A stretch of DNA of 39,961 nucleotides from a bacterium (GTDB taxonomy: Bacteria > Muiribacteriota > UBA6191). Location of the stretch: assembly GCA_036339875.1 (NCBI GenBank), contig JAYZAC010000143.1, positions 1 to 39,961 on the forward strand, given 5' to 3'. Shown here piece by piece: positions 6,716 through 33,500 of this stretch (positions are counted from its first letter, which is position 1; every line of letters starts with the position of its first letter). The position numbers were made by a program, and so were the translations under genes. A model generated the notes under the pieces. The model was not told the origin of the DNA. It was given only the letters and a program-made list of their open reading frames with translations, and made no database searches.

Positions 6716-9430
6716 TTACTGTGGTCTAAAGGTTTTTTGGTCAATCACATGCGGCCAAGCCTCCTCAAGGGTTATTTGACCTGTGTGTATAAGATCCTTT
6801 AATGTTTGATCTAGAGATATCATTCCATCTTTTTTCGATGTTTCAATCATTGTAGGTAATTGTTCAGTTTTACCATCTCGAATTATATTTTTTACTGCGG
6901 GGGTATTGATCATTATTTCGCAAGCGGGGATTCGTCCTCCGCCCGTTTTTCTTCGCAATAAGCGTTGCGAAACTATGGCTTTGAGATTAAAAGCAATTTG
7001 TTTACGTATATGCTCTTGATGTTCTGCTGAGAAGAAGTCCATTAGTTGCTCTACTGCAGAGGTACAAGTTGGGGCATGCAAGGTTGTAAGCACGAGGTGC
7101 CCTGTTCCAGCGAGGGTGATTGCAGTTTCCACACTTTCTTCATCTCGCAATTCGCCAATCAAAATTACATCTGGGTCCTCACGTAAGGTTGCTCTGATTC
7201 CACTTGGAAACGAGCTTACGTCTCTCAATACTTCTCTTTGCGAAATATAAGACAGTTTGGAAGTATGTAGATATTCGACTGGATCTTCAATACAAATAAT
7301 ATGCTTATGAGCTAAAACGTTAATATAATTAATCATCGAGGCGAGAGTGCTAGATTTGCCTGATCCGGTGGGCCCAGTCAGAATAACCAGCCCATTTTCC
7401 AAGGTGCTAATTCTCTGCATGACTGAGGTAGGTAATCTTAAACTTTCAAAAGTAGGGACTTTGTCAGATATAAACCGGCCAGCTAATTCGTAGCCAACTA
7501 GAGTTTTATAAATATTTATTCTTAAGCGTGTTCCAACTTCCGTTTGATAGGACGTGTCAACTTGAAAGTTTCTCTCTAATCTATCAAGATGCTTATCTTT
7601 CAAGATTTGTTTTGCAAAGATAACAACATGCTCATTGTTGATTTCCGATTCACGCATGCTTGATAATTTTCCGTTAACACGAATTATTGGCGGATGTCCA
7701 ACTTTTAAGTGAATGTCCGACGCTTCAAGGTTGAACGCCTGTTCAAGTAGAGTATTTAAATCAACTGGATAATGTTCAGAGTCGCTTGTATCCGGTAACG
7801 ATGTTATATCAGTTTGATAATTGGAAGCATTTTGTGCTGCCACAGTATTTTGTTGGTCTATGCCCACATTAATTGCCCTGGAGCTTCCGGTTTGTGATGC
7901 GTTTTCGTTGATTGATTGTTCTATTTTAAATAGCACAGGATTTTTTTTTCGTAACTGCTGGCAGAGTATGTTTTGATCAGCTAACTTGAGATTTCGTAAA
8001 TACAGTTGAGGCGAGTCAAACCCTTGAGTAATCTGATCTATGAATGCTTCAGCACCAATCAACTCCATTCGTTCTAAGGTTTTCAATGACCAGAAAAGGA
8101 TATTTTGATTTTGAGAGCAGCTTCCGATTAGAAGATACACAATCGGATACTGGCTGCATTCGACAAACAGTTCACTGGCTCTTTGTCTCACTTCCCAGCG
8201 ATCATTATCGAATGCTTCAATAAAAATCTCACAACATTCTTCGGTATTAATTTGAGATATTGTTTCCAAGGCAAGTAAGCGTAATTCTTTATCTTCAGAA
8301 TGAAGTAGTGTGGATATGCTGCTTAGAGTAGTAGGTTCAGCTATGGCTCCCAAACTATTTAATGCCCAGTATACAAGATCTTTTTCAGTAGACTTTAAGG
8401 TTTCGAGTAGAGGGCTAATGGCGTAGGTTTGTAATTGACTTAACTTTTCCATAGCAACTTTTCTAATGGCATAGCGTTCGTCTATAAATCGTCGGATAAG
8501 AATTCTTGCAGTTTCCTGAGACTTGAAGCTTCCCAAATGAATTACGGCTAAATAGCGAGATTGAGCATCGCTAGATTCGAATAACTCTGATAAATCCGAA
8601 ACCACCTCATGTCCGTAGCAATTTGCTGCGACCCTAAGCATGGTTTCAAGAGCTAAACCGTCCAATTTGCTTTTAAGCAGTTTGATAACATCATTTTTAT
8701 GGTTAATAGCAACTTTACACAATGAGCGAAAAACTTGTTCACGTATCAGAAAAGAATCAGTTTTCAGGAAATTTAAGAGACTTTTAATGACTCTAGGATC
8801 ATCAATCTCGCCTAGATTTGATACTGCATACAATGATATTTTCTCATCGTCGGGTACTTCTTTAATAAATTTGGAAAAATATTTTACTGCACTGCTTCCC
8901 AATATTTTGGCAAGGATCTTAAACGTCCAAAATCTTTGATGATCGTTACCATTAATAAATTTATTTTCTATAAAAGGCACGACCTTTTCACTCATAGTAA
9001 TAAGATTTCGAGAGGCTCTTTCGCGAATTTCCCAGTTATCGTTTGCCAATAATTGATATAGAAAAGATGTAAATTCTTCTCGTTCTAGATTAGGATTATT
9101 ATCCAGAACCATCTTACGAATATGATGATTTCCAGATTGAAATAAATTTTCAATAAGTTTTACTGAAATGCCAGATTGCTCTCTAATGATGGTTGTTAGC
9201 CAATAGCAAAGCGTCTGTTTCCGCTCTTGATCTGACTCTGCAGATATTTGATTTAATAGAAATTCGTGAGCTTCAACGCCGCCGTCAGAGAATATTTGGC
9301 TGGCTGATTTACGTATATTCCAGTCCTCATGGAACAGATATAAGATGAGTTGCTTCATTCCCTCAGAGGAGTCTTCTTGAATATTTGTTCTGATTTCGTC
9401 GAGCATTTGATCAAGAAATTGTTGGCACAT
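6716..9430 (-). CDS. HEAT-repeat / PilT-PilU family type IV pilus ATPase fusion
   Basis: aa ~555-904: ASDIHL, Walker A GPTGSGKSST, Asp box IEDPVEY, Walker B DPDVILIGELRD, His box TGHLVLTTLH, AVKNIIRDGK (AIRNLIRE-like). aa ~30-460 are HEAT repeats. Confidence 0.9.
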   Translation of the reverse strand: MCQQFLDQMLDEIRTNIQEDSSEGMKQLILYLFHEDWNIRKSASQIFSDGGVEAHEFLLNQISAESDQERKQTLCYWLTTIIREQSGISVKLIENLFQSGNHHIRKMVLDNNPNLEREEFTSFLYQLLANDNWEIRERASRNLITMSEKVVPFIENKFINGNDHQRFWTFKILAKILGSSAVKYFSKFIKEVPDDEKISLYAVSNLGEIDDPRVIKSLLNFLKTDSFLIREQVFRSLCKVAINHKNDVIKLLKSKLDGLALETMLRVAANCYGHEVVSDLSELFESSDAQSRYLAVIHLGSFKSQETARILIRRFIDERYAIRKVAMEKLSQLQTYAISPLLETLKSTEKDLVYWALNSLGAIAEPTTLSSISTLLHSEDKELRLLALETISQINTEECCEIFIEAFDNDRWEVRQRASELFVECSQYPIVYLLIGSCSQNQNILFWSLKTLERMELIGAEAFIDQITQGFDSPQLYLRNLKLADQNILCQQLRKKNPVLFKIEQSINENASQTGSSRAINVGIDQQNTVAAQNASNYQTDITSLPDTSDSEHYPVDLNTLLEQAFNLEASDIHLKVGHPPIIRVNGKLSSMRESEINNEHVVIFAKQILKDKHLDRLERNFQVDTSYQTEVGTRLRINIYKTLVGYELAGRFISDKVPTFESLRLPTSVMQRISTLENGLVILTGPTGSGKSSTLASMINYINVLAHKHIICIEDPVEYLHTSKLSYISQREVLRDVSSFPSGIRATLREDPDVILIGELRDEESVETAITLAGTGHLVLTTLHAPTCTSAVEQLMDFFSAEHQEHIRKQIAFNLKAIVSQRLLRRKTGGGRIPACEIMINTPAVKNIIRDGKTEQLPTMIETSKKDGMISLDQTLKDLIHTGQITLEEAWPHVIDQKTFRPQ

Positions 9431-15537: not shown

Positions 15538-15624
15538 TTAAGATCAAAAAAAAACAAAAAATGTCTTACAGTTTAGGGTTCTAAACGTTAAAAGTTGTTT
15601 GATTTGCACCGAAATCATTTTGTA

Positions 15625-16872
15625 ATGAAGCGTATATACTGTCTATTTTTATTCCTACTTCTATCAACCGCTAGGAGCGATGCGCTAATGATGAAAGGTA
15701 GCATCGAGGTGGTTAAGGGGCGTGCTTATGTTTATCGTAATGGGCGCGTAATTCAGGCAGCCGATGATATGACAATTTACACTGGTGATGTAGTAGAAAC
15801 TTCGCGACATGGATCGATTTTACTTCAAATGATGGACGTCGGAATCATCAAACTCAAGCCTTTAACACAAATAAAATTTCCAGAAAATGACACTGATCAA
15901 ATTCAGGTGTCACAGGTTAAGCTATTGTTTGGTGAGGTATGGGCAAAAATTCGCAAGATGAAAGCAGGTGAAAGTTTTGAGGTTTTCACTAAACATGCTG
16001 TGTCTCTTGTCAGTAATGCAATTTCTGTAGCGGCTTTTGATAAAAGGCGTAGCAAGTCAACATTCAGTATTATCGAGGGTGATGTAGAAGTTCATAAAGA
16101 TCAGAATCATTATTTTATGACTGCTGGAGAGAAAATCGTCTTGGATGGTCGTAAGAACTCAAAAGCTAGACATCGTAAAATAGATATTTATCGCTTAAAT
16201 CAAGATTGGAAAAAAGTAATTACCATTCGAGAAAAATTAGGACGTAAATTCAGAGAAAGTTTGCGTATGACTTCTAAATCGGGCAAGGATCAGGATTACG
16301 AAGCACCGTTGGTACATATTGTTAATCCAGTTGAAGGTGTACCAATTAAGAATCGCAGAGTCACTATTCGAGCAACTATATATGAAGAACATTTAGATAG
16401 GCTTATTCTGACGGTTAATAAGAAAGTAGTCCATGATGTCAATACTAGCTTGAAGTCTTTTGCCAAGGAGATATCGCTTCAGCCCGGTGAGAATATTGTA
16501 GAACTCAAGGCAATTGATCGTTTTGGTAATTTTGGAGTAGATGAGAAGGTATATAAGTTAAATGATATGCCGCCATCGATTAGTATATTTTTTCCTTTTG
16601 ATAACCTTGAACTCAACACAAGATTTGTTAGCCTCCAAGGCGTTGTTGATGATCCTGATGTTCGAGAAGTTAAAGTCTATCTAAATAATCGAATGATAGC
16701 TAGAGACAGAGCTGTACCCACTTTTCGAATTCCCATTATTTTAGATGTAGGTGAAAATTTGATAAGAGTAGAGGCCACAAATAAAGTCGGTTTAACGGGG
16801 AAAAATGAAATAACTGCGTATACGACTAAGCAATCGAATGTCGTTATTCAATTTAATCAATTTTTGAATTAA
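15625..16872 (+). CDS. Exported FecR-domain protein with two C-terminal Ig-like domains
   Basis: Signal peptide MKRIYCLFLFLLLSTARSDA; FecR pattern (GDVVET, LLFGEVW, FEVFT, IEGDVEV); Ig-like APLVHIVNP..LQPGENIVELKAIDRFGN and PPSISIFFP..GENLIRVEATN. Confidence 0.75.
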   Translation: MKRIYCLFLFLLLSTARSDALMMKGSIEVVKGRAYVYRNGRVIQAADDMTIYTGDVVETSRHGSILLQMMDVGIIKLKPLTQIKFPENDTDQIQVSQVKLLFGEVWAKIRKMKAGESFEVFTKHAVSLVSNAISVAAFDKRRSKSTFSIIEGDVEVHKDQNHYFMTAGEKIVLDGRKNSKARHRKIDIYRLNQDWKKVITIREKLGRKFRESLRMTSKSGKDQDYEAPLVHIVNPVEGVPIKNRRVTIRATIYEEHLDRLILTVNKKVVHDVNTSLKSFAKEISLQPGENIVELKAIDRFGNFGVDEKVYKLNDMPPSISIFFPFDNLELNTRFVSLQGVVDDPDVREVKVYLNNRMIARDRAVPTFRIPIILDVGENLIRVEATNKVGLTGKNEITAYTTKQSNVVIQFNQFLN

Positions 16873-16876
16873 TAGT

Positions 16877-18628
16877 ATGAAGTACAAATTGCGACATATT
16901 TATCTTTTGGGGCTCATCAGTTTGAGTCCTGTCTCAGCTACTTCCGACTATGTAAAAGACTTTATGAAAGTTGTTGAAGATAGCGATTATTTTTCACCAA
17001 TAGAGAAAGATTTTGCTAGACAATTAATGAACGGTGCAGACATGGATGACTCAGTCTTAGACGCAATTATAGAGTCTCCAGTTATTTCTTCTAAACAGAA
17101 AGAAATGGCCAAGCAGTACTTTCAAGAAAGGCAAAAACCGAAGCGTGTGAAGTTTAAACAACGCCGCTATGACAAAGATATTCAGTTAGTTAGTCCTCGT
17201 ATGAGATTCCATGGTGATTTTGATTTCCGACTTAGAAGCATAGATACTGCTAGAGATATTTCGAATCATTTTCCATTGGATAATGCAGATCAGGACCCCG
17301 GAATTGCTCACATAATTAAAGGTCAATTGCGTTATCGACCTGAGGGTCAGAAAGATCCAAAATCTTGGGGTCAAATCGATGTAGATGTGCAAGGAAGAGA
17401 CGGTGAAACAGAAATTATTAATGGTCATTTTCAAAATGATCAAAATTATCTAAAAATTGGAACTTTTTTAAGTCCTAATATGAGCGAGTTTGGATTGAGA
17501 AATACCGAATTCTCTGGTGTACATTTTCATTGGGAACAGAATAAGTGGAACATAGATGTTCTTAGAGGAGATACAGTTGAGGATTACGTTCCCAACCTAG
17601 ATAGTTTGAGCGTGGGAGGCTTCGTAGCAAGGCGCTTGTTAAAGAATAATTCTCGAGATTATATTGGCTTGAGTTATTTTGACTCATCTGATTCACACTA
17701 CTTTGGAGTTTTAGGACAAGCATTTATGCTTGATAATAATCTAAAACTGTACTCCGAAATTGTAAAACAGGATGTAGGTACGCCCGGACAAGATGCGACC
17801 GCTGTCGAATTTGAAATTGATTTTGAAAATGAAAAAGTTATATTTCTTAATGAGATACAGAAAACGACAGCTTTCTTTCAATCGAGTCTAAATCCCGAAT
17901 ATTCAAATCTGGGAACAAGTCTAAGCGAGTATCAAAATCAAGAGCATGCTTTCACTTATCGTTTTGATCCATATGTGACCAGTTCTGTGGTCCTTAATTC
18001 CAGAAAAGTTACTCCATTAAACGGCATCTCTGAATTTGATTCCATTGATGGAGCTTGGACATTAATGACGCATCGACCAGATCGACCTAAGTATATGTTT
18101 GTTGTAAAGAGCTCAAGCAATCAGGATACCGCAAATAGCTCAATTGATGATCGACAGTTTATTATGATGGGTCGGAGTTCTTGGAGACATAGAGATATAC
18201 TGACTCATGTTGATGTCATGCGCACAGACTTTACTGATCATTTATTAACCGACAATTCATACGTATTAAATTCGGTATCAGTTGAATTTTCGAGGCCGTT
18301 TTTAAATAAAATTCGAGTTAAAAATAAGCTAACTTTGTTGGATCAAAATTTTGAAAATTCAGTCAACGATGCAGAGTCTCAGCACAATATGTTTCAAGTG
18401 GATTATCAGATGGATAGTCGCACAAGTCTACAAGGACGACACAACTATCGTCGCGTGGCTCGCAAGGCCTTTACGAATAAATACAAGAATATTTGGTCGT
18501 TAGATGCTAGACGTCAAGTAGATGAAAATTTAGCCTACAACTTAAGGCTAAGTTCTTACAATAACAATGAATTCACTCGAGGTTACGACGCAGCTCTTGT
18601 AAGCCTAGGCGCTGACTTTAGCTTCTAG
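16877..18628 (+). CDS. Putative outer-membrane beta-barrel protein
   Basis: Signal peptide, short helical N-domain, many alternating amphipathic strands, C-terminal LGADFSF ending in Phe (BAM-type signal). Confidence 0.7.
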   Translation: MKYKLRHIYLLGLISLSPVSATSDYVKDFMKVVEDSDYFSPIEKDFARQLMNGADMDDSVLDAIIESPVISSKQKEMAKQYFQERQKPKRVKFKQRRYDKDIQLVSPRMRFHGDFDFRLRSIDTARDISNHFPLDNADQDPGIAHIIKGQLRYRPEGQKDPKSWGQIDVDVQGRDGETEIINGHFQNDQNYLKIGTFLSPNMSEFGLRNTEFSGVHFHWEQNKWNIDVLRGDTVEDYVPNLDSLSVGGFVARRLLKNNSRDYIGLSYFDSSDSHYFGVLGQAFMLDNNLKLYSEIVKQDVGTPGQDATAVEFEIDFENEKVIFLNEIQKTTAFFQSSLNPEYSNLGTSLSEYQNQEHAFTYRFDPYVTSSVVLNSRKVTPLNGISEFDSIDGAWTLMTHRPDRPKYMFVVKSSSNQDTANSSIDDRQFIMMGRSSWRHRDILTHVDVMRTDFTDHLLTDNSYVLNSVSVEFSRPFLNKIRVKNKLTLLDQNFENSVNDAESQHNMFQVDYQMDSRTSLQGRHNYRRVARKAFTNKYKNIWSLDARRQVDENLAYNLRLSSYNNNEFTRGYDAALVSLGADFSF

Positions 18629-18641
18629 AATAAGTAATCTT

Positions 18642-20354
18642 CTACGAATAATGTAGAATGCTTTCTATGCGGTACTTATCTAGTTTCTTTCTACCTGATA
18701 GGAAGTCTAATTCAATTAAGAATAGCATTTGTATAACTCGACCTTCGGCATTTTCAATCAATTGAGCAGTTGCTGAGGCGGTACCACCCGTCGCCAACAC
18801 ATCATCTACTATGACTACATTTTGCCCTTGAAGGTGTCCGGCCTGGACTTCTAATTCAGCGCTTCCGTATTCAAGCTCATAGCTTACACTCATGCACTCT
18901 CCAGGTAATTTACCTTTCTTACGAATTGGGATAAAACTACAACGCATTGCTTGAGCTAGTGCGGCCCCAAAAATGAAACCACGAGATTCAATTCCTGCAA
19001 TTACATCCACTTTGCAGCCTCTTAGTTGAGATTCAAACATTTTGACCACATCAGAAATACCGTGAGCCGACATTAATAGTGGAGTTATGTCCTTAAAAAC
19101 GACACCAGGTATAGGGAAATCGGGAATATCTTTAATTAGATTTCTAAGTCTTTTTGTAATTCCTCGTTCTTTTTTTGATTTTAGATCGTTGAAAATCGAG
19201 CGAGTAAATTCTTGCACCCACTCATCATTTACTTGCTGACGAACTTCTTTGGTTTCACCCAGCTTGTTTAAGGCGACCAGTGCATTTTTTCTAACATATT
19301 CACTACTATCTCGAAGAGCGTCAACCAAATCAAGTGTACTTGACTCTTCTCCCATCTCTCCAAGTGCCTGCGCGGCAGAAGCTCGGACACTCCAAGTGAC
19401 ATCATGTTTCATGATTTTAACTAATTCTGGTGCATATTGCACAGCCTGCAACTCACCCAAAACCTTACAAGTCCAGAATCTAATATTGTCATTTTTACTT
19501 TTTAGAGAGCGGCCAAGCTCATCTTCTCCATATTCTCCAACTTCCCATAGAGCATCAGCAGCTAACTTTCGAATGATCCAATTTTCATCTCCGAGCATCT
19601 GAACGAGTGGCGGGATTACCTCTGATGACTCAAAGTTTCTCAAGGCGGTGATGAGTACTTGTTTTTGATCAATGGTCGTCTTGTCGGAAAGAGCCTTATC
19701 TATGAGTGCTTTTCTAGCTGAGTCTCCACCAATCTGACCAAGAATTTGAATTGCCCAAAACTCCAAGTCTGGAGTTTTACAGCTCGTTAGTTTAGCAACT
19801 CCTTTAACAGCTTCTGGGCCTAGTTGGACCAATGCTGAAGCTGCACTTCTGCGAATTGTCCAAGGAGAATCTGCAAGGCAGTCAAGCAATGGTTTAACGG
19901 CTTCTTTCACACCTGTTTTACCTAGCGCTGATATTGCGCATAATTTCCGAGGCAGATTATCACTCTCCATGACTTCAACCAATGTTTTCACAGCTTTTGT
20001 TCCGAACTGCGATATCACCTCGCAAATCCAGAATTGTATATCGTCATCATTGCTTTTGGCGAGATCTAGAAGCATGTCGAGAAATGAATTTCCCAGTCCT
20101 ACTAAAACTTTGGAGGCATTGCGACGAACTCCATACGAAGTATGCTTCAAAGCTTCTATCATTTGGGGAATAACTGCGTCACCTTTGTCTTTAAGGATAC
20201 GAATTGCCTCGCGCGTGACAGCTTCGTTTTCGTCACTAAGGGCCTGTACTAAAAGCGTCAAACTATCCCCATCGGGGATATCTTTGAGTGCTACAACGGC
20301 TTCTTTACGAACTCTAAAATCCACATCGCGTAGTCGTTCTAAGAGGTCTTTCAT
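18642..20354 (-). CDS. apt: HEAT-repeat / adenine phosphoribosyltransferase fusion
   Basis: aa ~400-570: IPDFPIPGVVFKDITPLL, GIESRGFIFG, RKKGKLPG, YELEYG, PRPP motif VVIVDDVLATGGT. aa 1-370 are HEAT repeats. Confidence 0.92.
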   Translation of the reverse strand: MKDLLERLRDVDFRVRKEAVVALKDIPDGDSLTLLVQALSDENEAVTREAIRILKDKGDAVIPQMIEALKHTSYGVRRNASKVLVGLGNSFLDMLLDLAKSNDDDIQFWICEVISQFGTKAVKTLVEVMESDNLPRKLCAISALGKTGVKEAVKPLLDCLADSPWTIRRSAASALVQLGPEAVKGVAKLTSCKTPDLEFWAIQILGQIGGDSARKALIDKALSDKTTIDQKQVLITALRNFESSEVIPPLVQMLGDENWIIRKLAADALWEVGEYGEDELGRSLKSKNDNIRFWTCKVLGELQAVQYAPELVKIMKHDVTWSVRASAAQALGEMGEESSTLDLVDALRDSSEYVRKNALVALNKLGETKEVRQQVNDEWVQEFTRSIFNDLKSKKERGITKRLRNLIKDIPDFPIPGVVFKDITPLLMSAHGISDVVKMFESQLRGCKVDVIAGIESRGFIFGAALAQAMRCSFIPIRKKGKLPGECMSVSYELEYGSAELEVQAGHLQGQNVVIVDDVLATGGTASATAQLIENAEGRVIQMLFLIELDFLSGRKKLDKYRIESILHYS

Positions 20355-20387
20355 GATGTCTCCTGGTGCTCGACTTCTGAGGCTTGA

Positions 20388-21521
20388 TTACATAGAAAGC
20401 GACATGATAACACAGACATGCTCGAGGTTTTCTGACTGATTCTTTGGCCAAAAATAAGCAGGCATACCCTCTCCCTCACATTGAATGGCTACCGTATTAT
20501 CGCCAATTGACCCGAGATAATCCAACAGAAATTTAGAATTGAAGGCAACTGTCATTTCCTCCTGAACTTTTGAACCTTCCTCAAGACCAATTTCACGGTA
20601 ACCTTCTCCAAATTTTTCAGAAAATGAACTAATACCAAGTTGTTGAGGGTGAATTTCTAACACGATTCTATTTCCCGATTCACGTGCTACGGGTAACAAG
20701 CCTTTGAGATGCCCAATAAATCGACTATTATCAAGATGAAGACCTTCTGAAAGATCCTCTGGAATATAGTCTTCGTAGTCTACAAACTCTGCATCAGAAA
20801 GAGCAGATTGGAAAATAGTACTACCAAATTGTAATAGAAATTTATTGTGTTGCTGACGTATTAAAATAGGGTCGTCCGGTAGAATTTTGAGTAATTCGGA
20901 AACCACGTCCATTGAGATTAACCAGCGAATCTTTTGATCTACCTGGATCGGAGAGGGGCTAGTCGCTTTGACTAGTCTGTTACCATCCATTGATGCTACT
21001 GTGAGTTTGTTACTTGAGATATCCATACAAATACCTCGAAAGCCTTGAATTGAATTTTCAGTGGTAGCGGAACAAATGCTTCCAATTTTTAAGATATCTT
21101 TGAGATTGCTGCCAGGAATTTCCATTTCCATTTCTGCAGTAATTAGTTCCACCTCTGGGTAATCTTCTTTGCCTCTTCCCGGTAGTTCATACCTTGCAGA
21201 TTCTCCCTCCAACGTTAGCAAAACCCGATTATTACTTGGATTAACATCAATCAGGATCTTTTCTTTGTTGAATTCACGAAGATTGTGTATTAATTCTAAA
21301 AAAAATTGACCTTGAACTAGAATTTCTCCCGGTCGATCTATTTCGGCTTTAATTTGAGTTGAAATAAAAGTTTTGATGTTCGTAGCACTTAATCGTATCG
21401 CATTATCTAGAGTTTCCAGACGAATGTGAGTAAGTTCGGGTATGGCTGTGGTAGTCGGCAATGCGCGCGTAGTAATTTGTAATGCGTTCTGAAGTTCGTT
21501 TTTGTCACATACAATTTTCAT
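20388..21521 (-). CDS. dnaN: DNA polymerase III beta sliding clamp (divergent)
   Basis: 377 aa; LSATN, PGEILV, DYPE, ASMDGNRL, FVDY, AFNSKFLLD, terminal VIM; AGGAG RBS. Confidence 0.85.
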   Translation of the reverse strand: MKIVCDKNELQNALQITTRALPTTTAIPELTHIRLETLDNAIRLSATNIKTFISTQIKAEIDRPGEILVQGQFFLELIHNLREFNKEKILIDVNPSNNRVLLTLEGESARYELPGRGKEDYPEVELITAEMEMEIPGSNLKDILKIGSICSATTENSIQGFRGICMDISSNKLTVASMDGNRLVKATSPSPIQVDQKIRWLISMDVVSELLKILPDDPILIRQQHNKFLLQFGSTIFQSALSDAEFVDYEDYIPEDLSEGLHLDNSRFIGHLKGLLPVARESGNRIVLEIHPQQLGISSFSEKFGEGYREIGLEEGSKVQEEMTVAFNSKFLLDYLGSIGDNTVAIQCEGEGMPAYFWPKNQSENLEHVCVIMSLSM

Positions 21522-21853: not shown

Positions 21854-22864
21854 ATGGATAATCTAAGTAATCAAATCGGGTCATTTGAGTCAATTGAGGT
21901 TGAATTTGGGGATTTGGATTCATCAGATGATGGTTCATGGGAAGAGAGATATGCTTCCTTAAAGCTTCTTGTACAAAGCGATGCGGGTGATCTCTACAAA
22001 CTGCGTGAAATGAAAGACGCACTCAACGATAGTAACGCTGCCGTTCGTTATTTGGCCGCGAATAGTCTCAAAGCGCTCGATTGTGAAGGGGTGGTAGATG
22101 CATTATTGTTTGCACTCACTGATTCGTATGAATGGATAAGAATTAGGGCTATCGAGGGTCTGGGTGATCGGCGGGCAGTTGAAGCTGTTGAGCCCTTCAT
22201 TCAATATTTAGATAAAGATTCTAATCCCAAAGTTAGGGCTACACTCGTGAAACATCTTGGGCGATTTTGTGAGTTGAAACTGGTTCCCTTGATTGCCTCT
22301 TATTTGTCTGATGATGATGCCCGTGTTCGCGCTAATGCTGTGGAGGGTTTGGGATTTTATCCACCAGAATTCGTTGCCGATATTCTTCGTCCTCTCAAAG
22401 ATGATGATAATGCTCGAATTCGTGCTAATGTTGCAGTGGCCTTATCCAAAGGAGAAGCAAATGTATCCAGAGGAACAATTGATCAATTGCTTAGCTCTCC
22501 AGATCTTTATGAGCGTATGGGTGCAATCTATTCTATTGGCGAAACGAGAGAAGAGACTTATATTCCCATTTTATTGCAGTATTTGAATGACCCGTCTTAC
22601 CTTGTGCAGCGCAATGTTTGTGATGCTATGATCAAATTCGGTATCAAATTGCAAGGGATTTTATTAAAGGAAATCCGCACAAGAAAGACTGAAAGTTTTT
22701 TACTGGGTTCTCTCAGAGTGCTTGCCTCTATCGCAGACAAAAAGGCTTTGAAGACTTTACTTAAACTTCAGGAGACTGGAGAAGGAGAAGTTAGAGAGGC
22801 TGCGGAAAGGGCGATCGACGAGATTTACTCACGCGCCAAACGACTTCCTACTCACGTCATCTAA
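21854..22864 (+). CDS. Stand-alone HEAT-repeat protein
   Basis: Repeats such as DSNAAVRYLAANSL, DSNPKVRATLVKHLG, DDDARVRANAVEGLG, DDNARIRANVAVAL; acidic N-terminus. Confidence 0.85.
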   Translation: MDNLSNQIGSFESIEVEFGDLDSSDDGSWEERYASLKLLVQSDAGDLYKLREMKDALNDSNAAVRYLAANSLKALDCEGVVDALLFALTDSYEWIRIRAIEGLGDRRAVEAVEPFIQYLDKDSNPKVRATLVKHLGRFCELKLVPLIASYLSDDDARVRANAVEGLGFYPPEFVADILRPLKDDDNARIRANVAVALSKGEANVSRGTIDQLLSSPDLYERMGAIYSIGETREETYIPILLQYLNDPSYLVQRNVCDAMIKFGIKLQGILLKEIRTRKTESFLLGSLRVLASIADKKALKTLLKLQETGEGEVREAAERAIDEIYSRAKRLPTHVI

Positions 22865-23123: not shown

Positions 23124-25088
23124 GTGGTCTACGTAGTGCTGTCCTTGTTATTCCTACACTCTTCAATGTACGCAGCGTCTCAGGGTAAAATTGAATTTAG
23201 TGCGGATTACCAAGAATACAATCAGCGATTAGGTTTAGTGATACTAAAAGATGGAGCTCGCATTGTTGGTTCTGATTTTGAAATCGCAGGCAAAAACTTG
23301 CAGTATAATCTTTCAACAGGTGACATTCATGCAAGAGGTCAAGTAGAGCTGCAGCGCGATGATGAAGTTTTAGAAGCTGATATATTGCATTATAATGTAA
23401 AAACGAAGGTTGGTAGTACAGAAGGTATTGAAGCGATCTTCCAAAATACTTTTGTGGAAGCAGAATCAGCTGAGATCGATAGGTCGGGGTTACTTTTAAG
23501 AAACGGTTGTGCGTCCACCTGTGATGATGTTCATTATCACTATCATATTCGAGCTAGGAAAATAGTTTTAGTTCCAGATAAGGCTTTATATCTAAAAGGT
23601 GTAAAGTTCTATTTGGGGAAAACGAAAGTTCTTAGTCTACCGGCATATCGCTTTAACTTGGCAGGAAAAAGATTTGAGGCTCCGCTTAAGCTGGTTCCTG
23701 GTTTTGATGCTTCTAGAGGTTTTTATTCTAAGGTAGGTTGGGACTTTTACTTTAATCCAAAATTCTATGGTGAACTTAACTTGGTACCTACTTCTCGTCA
23801 AGGCGTCGAGTTAAAAATGGATCTTCAAATAAATCAAGAGACAAAGTTTCCAGCACGAGTAAAGTATGAGCAGCAGCATAATCAATTTACAAGTAGGACC
23901 ACTCGCCGCGCGAATCTGAATCAACGGTATAAAAAGAGTGATAAAGGTTTTGCTGATCTTACAATTAATTATCTAGAGGATGAGTTTAGTTCAATACAAT
24001 CAAATAAGGAGTTAAATACTCGTCTTCACTGGACTAGGCATATGCCTTTTGGTTGGCGCGGTGAATTGGATTATGAAGTTAGGCATGATTTAGATAAGGA
24101 CGTATATTTAGCGGATAATCGCGTACAAAGTTTGGATCGATTACCTAGCTTATATTTTGAGTCTCCCACTCGAAGTATGGATTCCATTCCGTGGAACTTT
24201 AGGCTGGGTACTAGATTTACAAGATTTCGCGAAAATTCTTTTCAGGGTCGAATTGCTCATGATGTTAAAGAGGTGTTTCTGAATGCTTTTCAAGATACCT
24301 ATCAATATGGTCGTTCTACTTTCAGTATGAATTCGCAATTTAGATTTAGTCATTACAGCGGAGGAATTCAGCGAGAGTACTTGCGGCTTAATGCTGGTTG
24401 GAACCATGATTTTGGAGAGGGTTGGAATAGCTCGACTCAGTATCATACGCACCATGTTGGAGGACGTAGTCCTTTTAGAACATTTGATTTGTTGACTCCG
24501 CAAGAAAGATTGACGCAGCGCTTTAGTTATAGAAAAGGTAATTGGTCAGGAACTCTTTTGCAGTTGGGTTATAATTTTAAGAGTGATCTGTATGATGGAT
24601 TAAGTTCCTATTTACAGTATCGCGATAACTGGAGACAGAAGCCTTACTTTTTGAGTTTGAGAGCGAGTTATGGCAATAAGCTTACTCCTGGTAGTCTAGG
24701 AAACTTATCTATTGATCAGCTGTTTATGAGTTTTCGTATGCAGGACTCGGATCACTGGGACTTCGACTTCAAGGCAAAATATAGTAATCTTCGATCACGC
24801 TGGGAAAGTTTTACGCATTCAACCGATTATTTAATCGGTAATCGGACTAGATTGAGCTTTCAGGAACATTACAATGCGGTAACCAATGAGTTTACCAGGA
24901 TAAGATTGGGTTGGATACGAGATTTACATTGTTTAGAAAGCCGAATGGATTGGGATTTAAAGCAGAAAGAGTTTACCTTTCAGGTTTATCTCAAGCAGGG
25001 GCGCGGTGATGGTTTAGGTTTGCGATTAAATTATGAAGATGCACTTAGTGTTAAGCCCGACTTACCAGGAATTGATGAAAATTACTAA
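23124..25088 (+). CDS. lptD: LPS-assembly protein LptD-like
   Basis: Signal peptide, OstA-like jellyroll (IEFSADYQEY, ARGQVEL, ADILHYN), STCD..HYHIRA, barrel strands, C-terminal RDLHC. Confidence 0.75.
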   Translation: MVYVVLSLLFLHSSMYAASQGKIEFSADYQEYNQRLGLVILKDGARIVGSDFEIAGKNLQYNLSTGDIHARGQVELQRDDEVLEADILHYNVKTKVGSTEGIEAIFQNTFVEAESAEIDRSGLLLRNGCASTCDDVHYHYHIRARKIVLVPDKALYLKGVKFYLGKTKVLSLPAYRFNLAGKRFEAPLKLVPGFDASRGFYSKVGWDFYFNPKFYGELNLVPTSRQGVELKMDLQINQETKFPARVKYEQQHNQFTSRTTRRANLNQRYKKSDKGFADLTINYLEDEFSSIQSNKELNTRLHWTRHMPFGWRGELDYEVRHDLDKDVYLADNRVQSLDRLPSLYFESPTRSMDSIPWNFRLGTRFTRFRENSFQGRIAHDVKEVFLNAFQDTYQYGRSTFSMNSQFRFSHYSGGIQREYLRLNAGWNHDFGEGWNSSTQYHTHHVGGRSPFRTFDLLTPQERLTQRFSYRKGNWSGTLLQLGYNFKSDLYDGLSSYLQYRDNWRQKPYFLSLRASYGNKLTPGSLGNLSIDQLFMSFRMQDSDHWDFDFKAKYSNLRSRWESFTHSTDYLIGNRTRLSFQEHYNAVTNEFTRIRLGWIRDLHCLESRMDWDLKQKEFTFQVYLKQGRGDGLGLRLNYEDALSVKPDLPGIDENY

Positions 25089-25161: not shown

Positions 25162-26175
25162 ATGGCCACCAAGAAAAAGGAGCTTAGTGCTCGATCTAAA
25201 ATAGCAATATTCCTTATGTTTCTTGGCGCAGATTTATCACGTGATGTGGTAAAGATGCTCACCGAAGAAGAAATGGAGGCTATTGCTGTTGAGATTGCTC
25301 GAATAAGAAAAGTTGATCAAGAGGATCGAGATCAAGTTGTGGAAGATTTCTACAATATGCTCAAAGCTCAAGAATTTATAACTCAAGGTGGGGTTTCGGC
25401 GGCACGAGATTTCTTGACCGGTGCCGTCGGCGATGAAATGGCTGAAAATATAATTTCCAAGTTAACTTCTTCTTTGGAGGTCCAGCCTTTCGATTTAATT
25501 CGAGCAGCAGATCCGGAACATCTGAAAAACTTTATTTCGGGGGAGCATCCTCAAACAATAGCTTTAATTTTGGCTTATCTACAGTCCGATAAGGCCGCAA
25601 TGATTTTATCTTCATTTTCGCCAGAGGTGCAAGTTGAGGCTGCTAAACGTTTGGCACAAATGGATAGGACATCGCCAGAAATCGTACGTGATGTAGAAGC
25701 TATATTAGAGAAGAAGCTTTCGACAGTGGCTAGCTCTGATTATACCTCCGTGGGTGGAGTTGAGGCTCTGGTTGATATTATCAATAATGTAGATCGTGGA
25801 ACAGAGAAAGCTATCATAGAAAATCTTGAAATTCAGAATCCGGATTTAGCAGAGGAAATCAAAAAACGAATGTTTGTTTTTGAGGACTTAAATACTCTGG
25901 ACGATAGGGGTATGCAGAGAGTTTTGAAGGAAGTGGATTCCAAGGATTTAGGCCTAGCCTTAAAGGGTGCGTCCGATGATGTCAAAGGAAAATTTCTTAA
26001 AAATATGTCCAAACGTGCCTCGCAAATGCTTCAGGATGAGATGGCATTTATGGGTCCCGTGCGTATAAAGGACGTAGAAGAGGCACAGCAGAAAATTGTT
26101 AATGTGGTTCGAGGTTTAGAGGAAGCTGGCGAATTAGTTCTTAGCCGTGGTGGAGAGGATGAATTGATCACTTAA
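25162..26175 (+). CDS. fliG: Flagellar motor switch protein FliG
   Basis: Full length; QGG, EHPQTIALILAY, GGVE, MFVFEDL, ALKGA, NMSKRA, GPVRIKDVEEAQQKIV; GGAG RBS. Confidence 0.96.
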   Translation: MATKKKELSARSKIAIFLMFLGADLSRDVVKMLTEEEMEAIAVEIARIRKVDQEDRDQVVEDFYNMLKAQEFITQGGVSAARDFLTGAVGDEMAENIISKLTSSLEVQPFDLIRAADPEHLKNFISGEHPQTIALILAYLQSDKAAMILSSFSPEVQVEAAKRLAQMDRTSPEIVRDVEAILEKKLSTVASSDYTSVGGVEALVDIINNVDRGTEKAIIENLEIQNPDLAEEIKKRMFVFEDLNTLDDRGMQRVLKEVDSKDLGLALKGASDDVKGKFLKNMSKRASQMLQDEMAFMGPVRIKDVEEAQQKIVNVVRGLEEAGELVLSRGGEDELIT

Positions 26176-27468: not shown

Positions 27469-27579
27469 GCTAGATGCATTATTCTTTTTGAAATCTGATA
27501 TAAGACTCCAAGTTTGATACTAAATCCAGTAGAATGTCTCGGTGGAAGCGGACTTGGATATGGACCTTCCCAAAATAGT

Positions 27580-30500
27580 ATGCGGATTCTTTTTTTAGCA
27601 TTTCTAGTTTTTGTTTTTAGCACTGTAGTGGGTGCTGCAGATTTACCTTCCATGAATACACAATCGGAATGGCACTACAAAGTCATAATTTCTGAAGTAA
27701 TCATGGATGATGACGGTAAATACGCAGCATTACCGGCCCAAGGTTTTGAAGGTGGAAAGTGGAAGCATTCGGCTGAGGTAGATCTGACACTAGAACTACT
27801 AAACATATCTGGCTCAGATATAGATATAGAAGGGTGGACTATTTGGTATGTGACAGAGCCTTATGATTTCTCAGGGGATTCAACATTACAGGCTACAGGA
27901 ACCACCGACATTAATGTTGTTCCGCCGGAAAATTATGATCTTTGCGGTATTAAGTCCAACTCAACTCATGGTGATAACGTACAATCTAATACTTTAAATG
28001 TTCAGAGTGGCTCAATAATTATATCTGCTAATCAAGAACTTGTTATTTATGAAAATCCAAAGAATGTTGGACTTACAACAGGTTTGCTTATTTTCCCTCC
28101 TGAAATTAATCGAGAGACTTTTTTAGCAAAAGGTAATACTTTGGCGTTAGGGTCGAGTCCAACCAAACATGAGTATCCGGATGCAGGAGAGACTTATTCA
28201 TCAACAATTGGTCAAGTGGATTATGATCGGCTATTTTTAGGATATTTAAATAATTATCAAGGTCGAAGTAATGAATCAGATGCTCTGGAAGGCGACATGG
28301 AGGGTTACATTACCGGGGCAGTTGGTTGTTCTGCTTCAGACCCACATTGTCGATTTGCTCAGCCCTATCAAGGGCAAGAGCCAGGATACGGTGTACCTAG
28401 GACCTGTTTTGGGAATAAATTTACTAATGATGCTCACTATACCACGGATGGTTATTATGCCAGTTCTCCCGCCGTGCAGACATTATCTGATACTTTGAAG
28501 CCTGTAGACGGTCACAGGTTTACAATTGTTTTGACGGATGATCAAAACAAAGTGGTCGATGTTTTTTCTGTGGCGCAGGATAGCTCGGATATTAATGCTC
28601 AGAATGATTTGACAATTGAAGGTTTTGATTTCTCTGCTGCGGGCCCTGGATTCCCCGCAACCAGTGCTCTTGCTGTAGCGAACGTTGATCTAAGTTCTTA
28701 CTCTTGGACGAAAACTAATTTAGCTCCAGCTTCAAGTCGAAACTCTTATGTTATAACCGTTGCAAGTGAGGGTTCCTACGGAAGTATAGGAGGTACTACT
28801 GGCACGACGGGTAATCCAAAGTGGAGTTTAGATGACTCATCTAGTTTTGTTAAGGTTTTAAGAGCGGATCCGGGCCTTGGTGACCCTCCGGGTGCCAATA
28901 TTGGAGATCCTGAGTCCACATTCCGTCTTGAAGCTAAGCTTAATGCGGGACTGGGAGTAGATATTCTTCGTGTAGGCTTTAAGATATTTAAGATTGATAA
29001 CCCTGATCTACTGCTGCCTAGTGCAACAAATTTTTTAGGAATGGATTTTAACTCAAGTACTGGTAAATATCAGGCCACATTCGTACCATTTTCAGAATCA
29101 TTAGGCAATGAGAGCCCCGTAACTTCTACGGCATACGGTGTGATTATTGAGGCTCAGGATGAAGATGGAACCAAGCGAGAAACTCTCAATAGTGGAGCTA
29201 CTATTTTTACAATTGATCCTGCAGGTCCGGTTCAACAATTTTTCTCTACCAGTCCGAACATAAATAATGGAGTTGTATCTTCGTTAGAATTGAATTCATT
29301 ATTAACTTTGAGTGTAAGTGCGATTGATTTAGGTACTTCAGTTATTTCAGACGTATATGTGGAACCGGTTCAGAGTAGCGGTGCGGCGCTTGGCATCACT
29401 TATCCTTTTCAATCAACTGATGGTATCAATTACACTACTGACTTCGTAGTTTCCGGCGATCTCACACCTGATACTACTTACCATCTTAAAATTACGTCCG
29501 TGGATAGTTTTGGACATGAGTCTGAGGTTTCTTACGCATCCTATGAATTCAAGTTGGTTGAAGCGCCTTATCTTAATCCTAACCCATATGTCGTGAGCGT
29601 TGTTAAATCAGAAACCTTAACGATAGCGGATCTGAGAACTAATGGTATTACTGTAATCCCAGTGGGAATGCCAGGTAGTTTGGATGACGTTAACTACGAA
29701 TTTGTAAGTTTAAGTAGTGAACTTGACTCTTGCAGTCTTGTTCCTTTTCCTTCAGTTTCAGGAGTAGCTCAAAAGTTAGAAATAATTGCTGGTAGTACTC
29801 CAGGTACAGGTTATTGTACGATTTCATTAGAGCTAGGAGGTGTTGAAAACAGTCAAATAGTTAAAGTGAATATTTTAGAGACTCCGGATACAGTTTTATC
29901 AGCTTTAAAAGTAGCACCTGCCACTGATCCTTTGTTTCCTGGAGTACTCACTGAGAAAGGGCGGGTAAGTTTTACAGATTTTGTAGAATTTGAGGCTACT
30001 TTATCAGATGTCGACGGATTGGTAGGCGGCTCGGTTGTGATGCATCTGGTAGTGACAGACCCGAATCAAACGCAAAGTCAAGGTGGAGTGCTGCCATCTG
30101 TCCCCGTAACTGTCTACAAATTATTTATGTACGACGATGGTTCTGATGTCAGAGATCTTCCTACCGCTGCATTTGGTTCTCGCTATCTGCCAAATACGAC
30201 CTACGTTTATAATGATGCTGATGCCCTTGAGGTTGAGGGTCAAATTACTCCAGACGCAGGGGGGCAAAAGTTTCCTGTAAGTGATCCAGGAATGCCAAAT
30301 TTTAAGTTATTTAAGGCAGACATAGGTTCTCCGAATAATGATATTTTTCATATTACTTTAAAGCCCTACGACTTAGCTTTTTCTACCGATTATCGGATAG
30401 ATTTAGAGGTGACCGACTCCATTTCTAACGTCACGTATTTACCTGATGCGGGTAATGTGAATATTTGGGCTGGACCGGGCTGGATACATCCTGCTGAAGC

Positions 30501-33500
30501 TGAGACTGATTTTTCAGGGACTGAGACTGATACGCAGCAGACTGTGAATTTTAGATTGTTTGATTATGAATGTAATGCTCCTACTCATGTTTACGGACAT
30601 TCATGTGGATCAAAGGGAACTCCGCCCAATGCAAGTTTAAGTTCTGTTGGTCACGATTCTTTAGTATGGGAGGTAGATAGTTGGGATACACAGTTTTACC
30701 TCTCGGTAGATACAAATGCTGGCCAAATAAGTCAGGACGGTTTTGATGCGATTGTACTACCGCATCGCTGTGGTACTGGACAAATAGTTATGCGAGTCAC
30801 GGATTCGTTAGGATATAGCGCAACAACAGACGCATTTTCTCTTAACTTAAATTGTGTAAATGATCCACCAACTTACTCAGCAGAGTATCAATCTGGTGAT
30901 CCCTCAGTAATTTTGATTGATGAGGATAGAGCAGCGCAAAGAATATCACTTACCTCCATAGGCTTTGAAGTTACGACTGGTTACTCGGAGACCGATAATA
31001 CCTTACTGACCTGGATATCACATGATAGCTCACCCTCTGTAGACGCCAGTAATTTAATTAGTTGGAATATTGATGGGTCTGATCTAGTTATAACTCCGCA
31101 GCCAGATTTTTCTCATACTACTGGAACATTTGATTCACTTGTTTTGTGTGTTTCTGATGCGGCTGGAGCCAAAGCTACAGGAGGAACTTTGCCTCATCCA
31201 GATGGCACAGCTAACGCTTGTGTGGTGGTTCGATTTCAAATAATCGCTATGGATGATCCTCCGGTGATTACTGTTGACGGACAAATCCCAGCAACACCAA
31301 TTCCGAGCACCATTTATTCGTTTGAAGATCAGGTTTTGACAACTACAGTTGGTTTTTATGATTCTGATGGGCTTTCAGGTTTAACTACTTGGAATGCCTC
31401 TTATATTAGTGGCCCCGCAAGTTTAATTAATACGATTACGTTTTCTAGACAGAGTACTTTAGGTACAAATGCAGAACTTTGGAATATGTTAATAACTCCG
31501 AATGCTAATCAATTCGGAGATGTGATTTACGATATTAGTGTCTTCACAGGGCCCTCTAGTAGCGATACTCAGCGGGTTACTTTTTCAGTGGCTGAGGTGA
31601 ATGATGCGCCCTACTTTAGTGCGTCCCCTTGTAGCCCTACCACGATTGTTACAGACGAAGGCTTTGCTCAAAAAATAATTAGCTTGAGTGAAGCATCGAT
31701 TAACGATACGAGTGACACTGACCACGGGGTTGTTGAAGACTATGCATGGTCTTTGGCCAGAGTTGATTACGATGGGGCCTACTACGATCAAACAAGCGAT
31801 CCAACAAGACCGCAAGTTAAACGAGTTTCTGGGTCTTTTACTCCTTCGATTTCTGAAGCGAATGCACTAGCTGTGGTTAATAATCTGAACAATCATTCGA
31901 TCTTTGAAATTCAAGTGACAACAGCAGGAAGTTTAATATTAAACTCATTTGATTATGCCTCGGTCACCTCAGCAATGATTCATATAAATGTGACTGATCG
32001 TGGAGGTCTGGCGAATTCGTTAACTGCTCAAGGTCAATGTGGTTTAGTCATAAATGACATCTCTGATTCTCCTCAAATCGATAGTGCAATACTAACTGAA
32101 AACAGAGAGCTTCAAGAAGATGTTGTCTTTCAATTTCCATTGGGTGCATTTGAGTTGGATCCATTTAATCCTAAAACTAGTGATGAAGAATATGATGCTA
32201 ATCTACAGTGGTCCGTCAGATTAGCAGAACCAACTACAATGTTTTCAATAGATGTCCAATACCCTACTAGTTTTCGTGCATACCTGCAAAATCGTAATGT
32301 GGTTGAAGGTTTGAACGACCGAATAGCTTTAGGTAGTGTTAATCCTGACATAAGCACTACATCCACGGGTCCTGATTCAATTGCTGATACAGATGATACA
32401 CCTAATATGCTTAATGCGATTGACGATCTTCTATATATATCCACGGCTCCCGATGTTCACGGAACTTTTGCATTGGAGCTATCTTTGCAACATGTTGGGC
32501 CATCTTCTGGTGCAACTCCCGCAACTACAATCTTAACCTTCTCTATACTTTCTGTGAATGATCCACCTCAAATAACGATTCTCGATTCTTTTGATCCATC
32601 TGTAGAGGTCACCAGCGATATGATTACAATGCCAGTTTCAGAGTCTATTCGTAGAATAGATTTAGTCAGCTGGGAGAATGATGCACGTGATTTTGTTTAT
32701 CCTACGACGGATGGAAATCCGAACGGATCAAAAATTTATTGGGATCATACGGAATTTGCAAGCGATGACGAATCTGTTATTACGCTGGGATGTCCCGGTT
32801 CGCCTACGAAGCTCGGAGACCCAGATTTACAAACTGATGATATTTTATGCCTTAATAGGGGACCCGGAGTCACTGGATTTGAATTTAAGGCAACCAATTT
32901 GAGATTGTATCTTTTGGACCAGGATGTACCAGTCGCTTCAGAGCGAGTCATCAGGGTTGAAGTCCTTGGAGAAAATCAGCATCCCACGATTGCTGGATTA
33001 GACAAAATTTTTATAAGCGAGGATGATCCTAATTTCAGCGAAGAACTCTCTCAATATGCTTTCGATGCAGAGGAGGCCTTGGTGGACGAAGATGGGCCTG
33101 GGGGTAATGTTGATAATATTCCACTGATGCAGTGGTATTTTTTACCGGAAAATCTTGGATTAAAATTCTCAGAAAATGCATTGACTTCAACAACTGTCAG
33201 CACATCGACTACGCTAGGTGTTTTTTCGATTGAAAATAAAAGTCAGCTATCAGTAATACCATTGACTAATGCCACCGGAGAAATTCAGAAATTCATGGCC
33301 GTTTGTGATCTTGGTAATGGTTGGCAAAGTAGAGAAAAGTTATGTACATCAACGGTAGTAACTTTCGTCCTAAACGATGTCAACGACTTACCTTTGGCAC
33401 CTGGCTTACCTTCTATGATTAGTACGCAGGAAGGTAGTTGTATGAGTCTTGATCTAACTTCCTATGAAGTAGACTATGATAATGATGCATTGTCTTGGAC

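Follow-up and report, generated by a model that had tools for sequence, protein, structure and literature searches.

The window, a stretch of 39,961 nucleotides, carries on its minus strand an open reading frame (18642..20354) of 570 amino acids plus a stop codon, which begins with ATG and joins HEAT repeats to an adenine phosphoribosyltransferase (Apt) in one polypeptide; a Pfam scan of the 570-residue product returned HEAT_2, HEAT and HEAT_PBS, together with Pribosyltran at aa 447–561. Immediately upstream lies dnaN, the conserved neighbour that encodes the beta clamp (20388..21521, minus strand; three Pfam DNA_pol3_beta domains), separated from the fusion by a spacer of 33 nt (20355..20387, minus strand) in which GGAG stands 6–9 nt before the ATG of the fusion. 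GGAG also precedes the ATG of dnaN itself, and in four relatives (G069, G070, G076 and G077) the dnaN and fusion ORF calls overlap. An earlier note on this DNA had described an intact APRT fused in frame behind HEAT repeats, in a gene 33 nt downstream of dnaN and with no methionine near the start of the APRT part; all three points hold, as the ORF is single and matched by full-length equivalog models, the coordinates agree, and the sole start-type codon in frame (ATG, GTG or TTG) over aa 343–428 is the GTG of V380, after which the next methionine of the fusion is M428, inside the Apt fold. No Shine–Dalgarno-like motif was found before the V380 codon. Because this GTG is not preceded by such a motif and M428 is located within the fold, the fusion ORF has no plausible internal start for a free Apt. 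A look by eye for a terminal beta-clamp-binding motif of the QL[SD]LF type saw none in the fusion. The sequencing runs that contain the window's DNA are labelled as marine or seawater metagenomes.

The Apt domain extends over aa 400–569 (18648..19157, minus strand), in keeping with the position that had been proposed for it. In its textbook form, Apt is a free dimer that converts adenine and PRPP to AMP and PPi. Two NCBIfam apt equivalog models exceed their cut-offs on the domain (NF002636, 217.1 bits versus 125; TIGR01090, 192.5 bits versus 185.85) and match it end to end, with model positions 1–169 falling on aa 400–569; within the phylum, TIGR01090 gives fused Apts 182–199 bits and free Apts with intact genes 207–235 bits. 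Compared with PDB 4lza (E 1e-47), the domain has 50% identity, and its catalytic and hood segments align gap-free. In the AlphaFold2 model, block pLDDT is mostly 82–94 over the Apt fold (aa 430–570), and a Foldseek search with this model listed about 40 APRT chains that superpose on the Apt half, most of them at TM 0.84–0.90 on the target (0.90 for 4lza), one chain at TM 0.75 being the exception.

The motifs that we take to define Apt, namely the hood D-F-P-x-P-G...F-K-D-I-x-P-L-L, E-x-R-G-F, R-K-x-G-K-L-P, Y-x-L-E-Y-G and D-D-V-L-A-T-G-G-T-A, are all invariant across 21 aligned fusion sequences; the flexible catalytic loop (Glu-Tyr), the PPi-loop arginine and the hood presumably have the roles assigned to them in work on the human and E. 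coli enzymes. The N-terminal hood segment (aa 409–427, DIPDFPIPGVVFKDITPLL; 19074..19130, minus strand) is unchanged in 21/21 sequences at D409, P411, D412, F413, P414, P416, G417, F420, K421, D422, I423, P425, L426 and L427. Similarly, Y492, L494, E495, Y496 and G497 are invariant in all 21 within the catalytic flexible-loop segment (aa 491–497, SYELEYG; 18864..18884, minus strand), as is the run from D517 to A526 within the PRPP-binding motif (aa 513–526, VVIVDDVLATGGTA; 18777..18818, minus strand), which has the form of an acidic pair followed by A-T-G-G-T; E456-R458-G459-F460 and R478-K479 do not vary either. Stand-alone bacterial Apts (PDB 4lza, 2dy0) share the fold, the PRPP, loop and hood motifs and the full-length equivalog match with the fusion; however, they are single domains of about 170–185 aa, whereas the fusion has 570 aa with a 395-aa HEAT solenoid at its N-terminus, and it therefore departs from them in architecture while the catalytic domain remains alike.

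A search for a second, stand-alone apt found none in the window's genome (85% complete, 203 contigs). No purF was found over the cut-off in any of the ten genomes of the window's family, here termed f1 (66–95% complete), and purF exceeds the cut-off in 14 of the 87 genomes of the phylum. For purM the count in f1 is likewise 0/10, the best matches reaching about 200 bits in frames of 473–498 aa. A free-standing hpt is present in 9/10 f1 genomes, and the window's genome has four PNP_UDP_1 genes, the products of which are possible adenine sources. Because the motifs are intact, the genome holds a sole apt and purF was not found, the fused Apt is very likely an active housekeeping enzyme of salvage-dependent organisms, for which the incompleteness of the genomes is a caveat, and it is probably the only Apt of the cell.

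The earlier note had offered two functional readings of the fusion, a scaffolded or regulated salvage enzyme and an adenine or PRPP sensor. In the latter, the Apt domain would mainly sense adenine, AMP or PRPP and control binding by the HEAT part, with catalysis being secondary. PRT folds do serve as PRPP sensors; for instance, the PRT fold of B. subtilis PurR senses PRPP and is attached to a DNA-binding domain. As in the fusion, the PRT fold of PurR thus sits on a non-catalytic N-terminal module, and PurR structures (PDB 1p4a, 1o57) are matched at E 1.5e-6; moreover, Apt stands in the fusion where a HEAT protein that already existed had its terminal zinc ribbon, an arrangement that would suit a sensor. 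Against this, the Apt domain has no degenerate part, its catalytic motifs being invariant throughout, the apt equivalogs stand over their cut-offs with the PurR model far below its own, and in a genome with no other apt and no purF found the enzyme is needed; a sensor is accordingly held to be very unlikely, and the scaffolded salvage enzyme fits better with the motifs kept, the sole apt, the purF count in f1 and the constraint on the arm described below. Membership of the fusion among PurR-type regulators was rejected on a TIGR01743 score of 37.3 versus 258.7 bits, the lack of any HTH or wHTH in the Pfam scan and the intact catalytic motifs.

The arm, or HEAT-A domain (aa 1–395; 19170..20354, minus strand), comprises about 12 helical hairpins (24 helices) as delimited from Pfam HEAT_2, AlphaFold2 and the HEAT-A proteins of sister families. 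Of the HEAT repeat families tested (Pfam PF13646, PF02985 and PF03130), HEAT_2 scores highest, with 227.3 bits over 8 stretches, compared with 102 bits for HEAT and 78.8 bits for HEAT_PBS. AlphaFold2 places 24 helices over aa 2–392, with block pLDDT mostly 81–95 up to aa 360, and the arm is thus modelled as a tandem array of helix-turn-helix units of about 30 aa, an alphaRep-like solenoid. Foldseek with the whole model returned APRT and designed alphaRep chains only and gave no functional lead for the arm; the alphaRep chains, which share a HEAT-like repeat of about 31 residues with the arm, match it at E 1e-44 to 1e-10. One chain retrieved, PDB 7p0h, is a man-made alphaRep fused to the PRT-like ComF and was set aside as a curiosity rather than a relative of the fusion. 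HEAT proteins of the PBS-lyase type (CpcE/CpcF, NblB) have the same repeat of about 31 residues, and membership in the phycobiliprotein lyases or NblB was rejected with the NCBIfam models NF058515, NF058502 and NF045915, which give scores far below their cut-offs, in this order 86.2 versus 220 bits (CpcF), 64 versus 330 (CpcE) and 89.4 versus 300 (NblB).

What had been called a helical linker between the two parts is better described as a terminal HEAT half-repeat (aa 375–395; 19170..19232, minus strand) followed by a junction of 6 residues (aa 396–401, ERGITK; 19152..19169, minus strand), the latter delimited by coordinates and by alignment with free HEAT-A. By eye, aa 375–395 match the final repeat of free HEAT-A, of the form EW-V-R-R-Y-A-A-E-x-L-E-K-x-K-x-K-K, which precedes a zinc ribbon in that protein; MAFFT left the two stretches unaligned. 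W379, T384, F388 and L391 in this half-repeat are invariant in 21/21 fusions. The junction marks the place that was formerly taken up by the zinc ribbon, by the stop codon and by the spacer. The whole AlphaFold2 model, built from a 21-row alignment, has a mean pLDDT of 84.4 and a pTM of 0.60; around the junction, pLDDT drops to 47–67 over aa 375–420 and below 50 at aa 387–397. AlphaFold2 predicted no docking of the HEAT arm on Apt, giving two confident domains in an arrangement that is not confident.

An error of assembly or sequencing that joined two separate ORFs would produce the same picture, and one relative, the f1 genome G074, does have the gene as two ORFs, with an apt frame of 454 aa; however, the break in G074 is a scaffold gap of 100 N with duplicated flanks, and it is the only split found among the close relatives that were checked for separate ORFs. 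In a scan of 87 genomes of the phylum, the apt frame is 571–619 aa long in the remaining 9/10 genomes of f1; in the other families it is 171–244 aa, apart from two long stop-to-stop frames in which the apt ORFs measure 170 and 181 aa, and free Apts in the phylum range over 170–207 aa. Searching proteins with a word index brought up another 20 full-length clusters of 569–570 aa with HEAT and PF00156, 46–92% identical and from several sources, and the alignment of these with the window protein, 21 fusions in total, has no indel at the junction. Moreover, a DNA contig of a separate run (X2) covers 19121–19690 and crosses the junction gap-free. With these clusters, the nine other f1 genomes and the independent contig all against it, an artefact is scarcely credible.

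Both halves of the fusion have been conserved to a comparable extent. In three within-genus pairs, pN is 0.02–0.18 versus pS of 0.50–0.74 for either half, with dN/dS of at most 0.09; synonymous differences are near saturation and nonsynonymous ones few, in HEAT and Apt halves alike. These substitution patterns indicate strong purifying selection on both halves, the HEAT arm being as constrained as the enzyme. Contigs from metatranscriptome libraries X15, X16 and X17, 100% identical to the window, cover stretches within the Apt half (18867–19144) and within the HEAT half, as well as the boundary between dnaN and the fusion (20284–20472); none of the contigs from these libraries crosses the HEAT/Apt junction, and libraries of this kind can hold DNA too.

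The gene order in related families shows how the fusion came about. The neighbourhoods of apt were compared in the window and 67 genomes of the phylum (68 loci), G071 being left out. At the eight other f1 loci the order begins with dnaN and the fusion, and in five of them a further HEAT-repeat gene, HEAT-B (about 333 aa), follows directly; in three f1 genomes (G069, G072, G073) HEAT-B is succeeded by an LptD-like outer-membrane protein and then FliG. In the window, HEAT-B encodes 336 aa on the plus strand (21854..22864; Pfam HEAT_2 133.8 bits), as the block from HEAT-B to FliG has been inverted in the window's genus and is now divergent from dnaN. The sister families f2–f5, which belong to the same class as f1 (five loci, L022–L026), have dnaN, a free HEAT-A of 437–466 aa and a free apt of 172–185 aa; HEAT-B and then the LptD-like gene come after apt in f3–f5 (4/5 sister loci), and no HEAT-B was found at the f2 locus. 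Thus, dnaN stands upstream of HEAT-A or the fusion at 14/14 loci examined in families f1–f5. The free HEAT-A proteins are 36–40% identical to aa 1–395 of the fusion, and the Apt parts 42–48%. In free HEAT-A a further clear HEAT repeat is followed by a C-terminal Zn_Ribbon_1 and a stop codon, whereas the fusion has no zinc ribbon. The gap between HEAT-A and apt is only 34 nt in f2; in f3–f5 it contains a gene whose product, of about 225–270 aa, is secreted, and this gene is absent from the f2 locus and from the window's genome. HEAT-A is single-copy, and in each of the 14 genomes, from five families, in which it was found it is either joined to apt or next to it. On this comparative evidence, two long-standing neighbour genes have been joined, and among the families examined the joining is limited to f1; the fusion is real and well conserved, but it is a fairly ordinary case of neighbour genes becoming one.

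The wider databases agree with this distribution. Of 822 proteins with an Apt part (313–998 aa, E ≤ 1e-20), the best 120 include 21 entries in which HEAT and Pribosyltran occur together, all from the window's family, so the architecture is confined to that family among the proteins examined. Among 1.84 billion representatives at 50% identity, both halves were matched by one full-length cluster and one fragment in the best 150 listed; both database searches are blind to independent HEAT-PRT fusions with unrelated HEAT parts. Full-text literature searches, judged by titles and abstracts, found no published description of a HEAT-Apt fusion, and the unrelated papers retrieved for HEAT repeat and phosphoribosyltransferase were, by the same titles and abstracts, mostly proteome lists and eukaryotic work.

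Beyond f1–f5, HEAT genes recur beside apt throughout the phylum. At 61/68 loci, apt is either fused to a HEAT ORF or has one within 400 nt on the same strand, 9 of the 68 having the HEAT part fused. HEAT-B lies directly downstream of apt at 31/68 loci (f1, f3–f8, f11 and part of f10), and a HEAT ORF lies directly upstream at 35/68, made up of 33 cases of HEAT-C, a distinct HEAT protein of about 500 aa in f10, one HEAT-A (f2) and the gap artefact of G074. The seven apt loci that have no HEAT neighbour are four of f9 and three of f10 at contig ends, with 1–660 bases of room upstream. The gene upstream of the apt-HEAT-B pair varies, being recJ (f7, f8, f11), a sigma-54 regulator (f6), HEAT-C or HEAT-A, and a TPR protein often comes next after the pair.

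This recurrence would accord with HEAT proteins being dedicated Apt partners throughout the phylum, with the fusion as their "Rosetta stone" and with HEAT-A and HEAT-B docking Apt onto another machine or controlling its activity. Such a partnership, which is considered unlikely, would imply a scaffolded adenine-salvage unit in organisms that have no purF, and its constant neighbours, dnaN and recJ, would suggest a connection with DNA turnover. However, apt and HEAT genes need not go together elsewhere in the phylum, because HEAT-C persists in f10 genomes that have no apt: it is kept in 50/51 genomes of f10, 11 of the 12 apt-less ones among them, and in G034, for example, HEAT-C is followed by a cytidylyltransferase, as in G020 minus apt. 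HEAT-B orthologues (at least 252 bits, frames of 231–365 aa) are found in 41/87 genomes; about 31 apt-bearing genomes have no HEAT-B orthologue, and in f9 HEAT-B is about 10 kb away from apt. All 41 HEAT-B genomes carry apt, and the apt-less genomes belong to clades that have no HEAT-B anyway or are incomplete genomes in which the whole locus is missing, such as the incomplete f4 genomes G063, G064 and G067, in which HEAT-A, apt and HEAT-B are all missing; the co-occurrence therefore carries no weight for or against coupling. A complex prediction for the Apt domain (aa 396–570) with HEAT-B scored 0.01 versus a mark of 0.32, a value that likewise speaks for neither side. HEAT_2 repeats are also plentiful in the window's genome (74 matches in about 27 frames), so a HEAT neighbour of apt is less special than it seems at first. 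A fusion of HEAT repeats with a T2SSE ATPase likewise occurs in the window.

Apt is a frequent fusion partner in other proteins too, but it is a repeat scaffold with no enzymatic function that sets the present case apart. Natural fusions include MTAP-Apt (about 425–430 aa), SurE-Apt, CobU-Apt, NUDIX-Apt, RpiA-Apt, RecJ-Apt (717 aa), SecF-Apt and RelA-HD-Apt; in the same best 120 of the 822 proteins, the partners are pathway enzymes in some cases (MTAP, SurE, RpiA, NUDIX) and mere operon neighbours in others (RecJ, SecF, RelA-HD). The latter cases lend weight to a neutral accident within an operon, in which neighbours with unrelated jobs lost the intervening stop codon, the halves remain independent and selection acts separately on each. 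The survival of HEAT-C after the deletion of apt and of Apt after the loss of HEAT-B, the AlphaFold2 model with no confident inter-domain packing and the abundance of HEAT proteins in the genome are equally in line with such an accident. It is a serious contender, though a rather doubtful one, as HEAT-A is fused or beside apt in every one of the 14 genomes in which it was found, in five families; the apt-HEAT-B pair persists while its upstream neighbour changes; and the fusion has been kept with no junction indel down to 46% identity.

The preferred reading, which is favoured with modest confidence, is that Apt is active and that its HEAT arm binds protein, thereby placing Apt or providing it with a partner. 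The stand-alone HEAT-A gene that lay between dnaN and apt in the ancestor was stripped of the part for the C-terminal zinc ribbon, of its stop codon and of a short spacer, so that HEAT-A now forms the N-terminal arm of the housekeeping Apt. Judged by its sequence, the Apt domain should keep its normal reaction, and dimerization through the Apt core, as expected by homology, would result in a two-armed particle. The conservation of the arm points to a specific protein-binding role, and the fusion sets a 1:1 ratio of Apt to HEAT-A and the same location for both. That the arm is an adaptor for Apt or a regulator of it, rather than a domain with an unrelated job, is suggested by the gene order together with the fusion; this argument is weakened by the decoupling of HEAT-C and HEAT-B from apt, the lack of predicted docking, the other Apt fusions and the abundance of HEAT proteins.

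HEAT_2 proteins are very common in bacteria and uncharacterised, and the sole Apt of a clade with a conserved arm of 395 aa offers a way to ask what they do; at the same time, the locus offers a way to ask whether purine salvage is spatially organised in bacteria that seem to lack de novo purine synthesis. If the arm proved to be a passenger, the locus would still be a clean and datable fusion of neighbour genes, achieved at the cost of no more than a zinc ribbon, a stop codon and about 34 nt. Public records of some relatives read [quoted passage not shown], a database name that gives no hint of the additional two thirds of the protein.

A second ORF of the window joins HEAT repeats to an enzyme: at 6716-9430 (-), a 904-aa protein carries HEAT repeats in its N-terminal part, followed by a T2SSE (PilB/GspE-type) ATPase. 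At the f10 locus L032, a 759-aa HEAT and TPR gene lies two genes upstream of apt and shares a 4-nt overlap with the gene of a 348-aa PilT-like ATPase. The HEAT-T2SSE fusion may be read as a second HEAT "Rosetta stone", a fused form hinting that separate partners cooperate, in which case an ATPase of pilus or secretion type would be the partner of such HEAT proteins.

PDB 7p0h, which matches both halves of the HEAT-Apt query, is man-made, consisting of an alphaRep (designed HEAT-like) module joined to the PRT-like protein ComF; it is no relative, and the likeness is a coincidence of design. In genome G074, the fusion gene shows as two ORFs around a run of 100 N (L021, about 7600-7700) flanked by a duplicated stretch; this form is a scaffolding artefact, easily mistaken for a natural split.

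Across the phylum, purF scored above the cut-off in only 14 of 87 genomes, including 10 of the 44 of high quality and none of the 10 of the window's family (f1), and de novo purine synthesis may be out of reach for much of the phylum. The salvage gene apt is gone from one otherwise kept gene order: in G034 (L090, 3476-5691 (-)), as compared with L032 (3504-6249 (+)), HEAT-C, the HEAT gene of about 500 aa upstream of apt in f10, and the cytidylyltransferase gene remain in order without apt between them. The genome scan of the phylum also found no apt in G021, in both genomes of genus g33 or in all seven of g35.

In sister families f3-f5, a secreted-protein gene is located between apt and HEAT-A, the free HEAT protein that follows dnaN (L023, 2456-3190 (+); L025, 5657-6478 (+); L026, 2091-2771 (-)). 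Its products (~225-270 aa) are mutually homologous and belong to no Pfam family, one member giving weak STN and FecR_C matches; the gene is missing in f2 and in the window's own genome.

At 23124-25088 (+), the window encodes a protein of 654 aa whose N-terminus resembles a signal peptide and which drew no match in a Pfam scan. It is probably an LptD-like outer-membrane protein, judging by a weak LptD_N match in an f3 orthologue and by its conserved position. The gene adjoins HEAT-B, the HEAT gene usually downstream of apt, in three f1 genomes, while its orthologue lies downstream of HEAT-B in f3-f4 and near apt in f2. FliG follows at 25162-26175 (+), with 87-99% identity across f1 genera versus 40-60% for neighboring genes; it lies apart from this genome's fliF (contig C186) and flhA (C33).

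The stretch 15595-18628 (+) holds two genes, the first encoding a 425-aa FecR and Glucodextran_B/Ig-like protein and the next a 583-aa protein without a Pfam match. Both occur in five other f1 genomes, and the former alone in a sixth, not always alongside the fusion. A giant ORF of 4020 aa occupies 27514-39576 (+).
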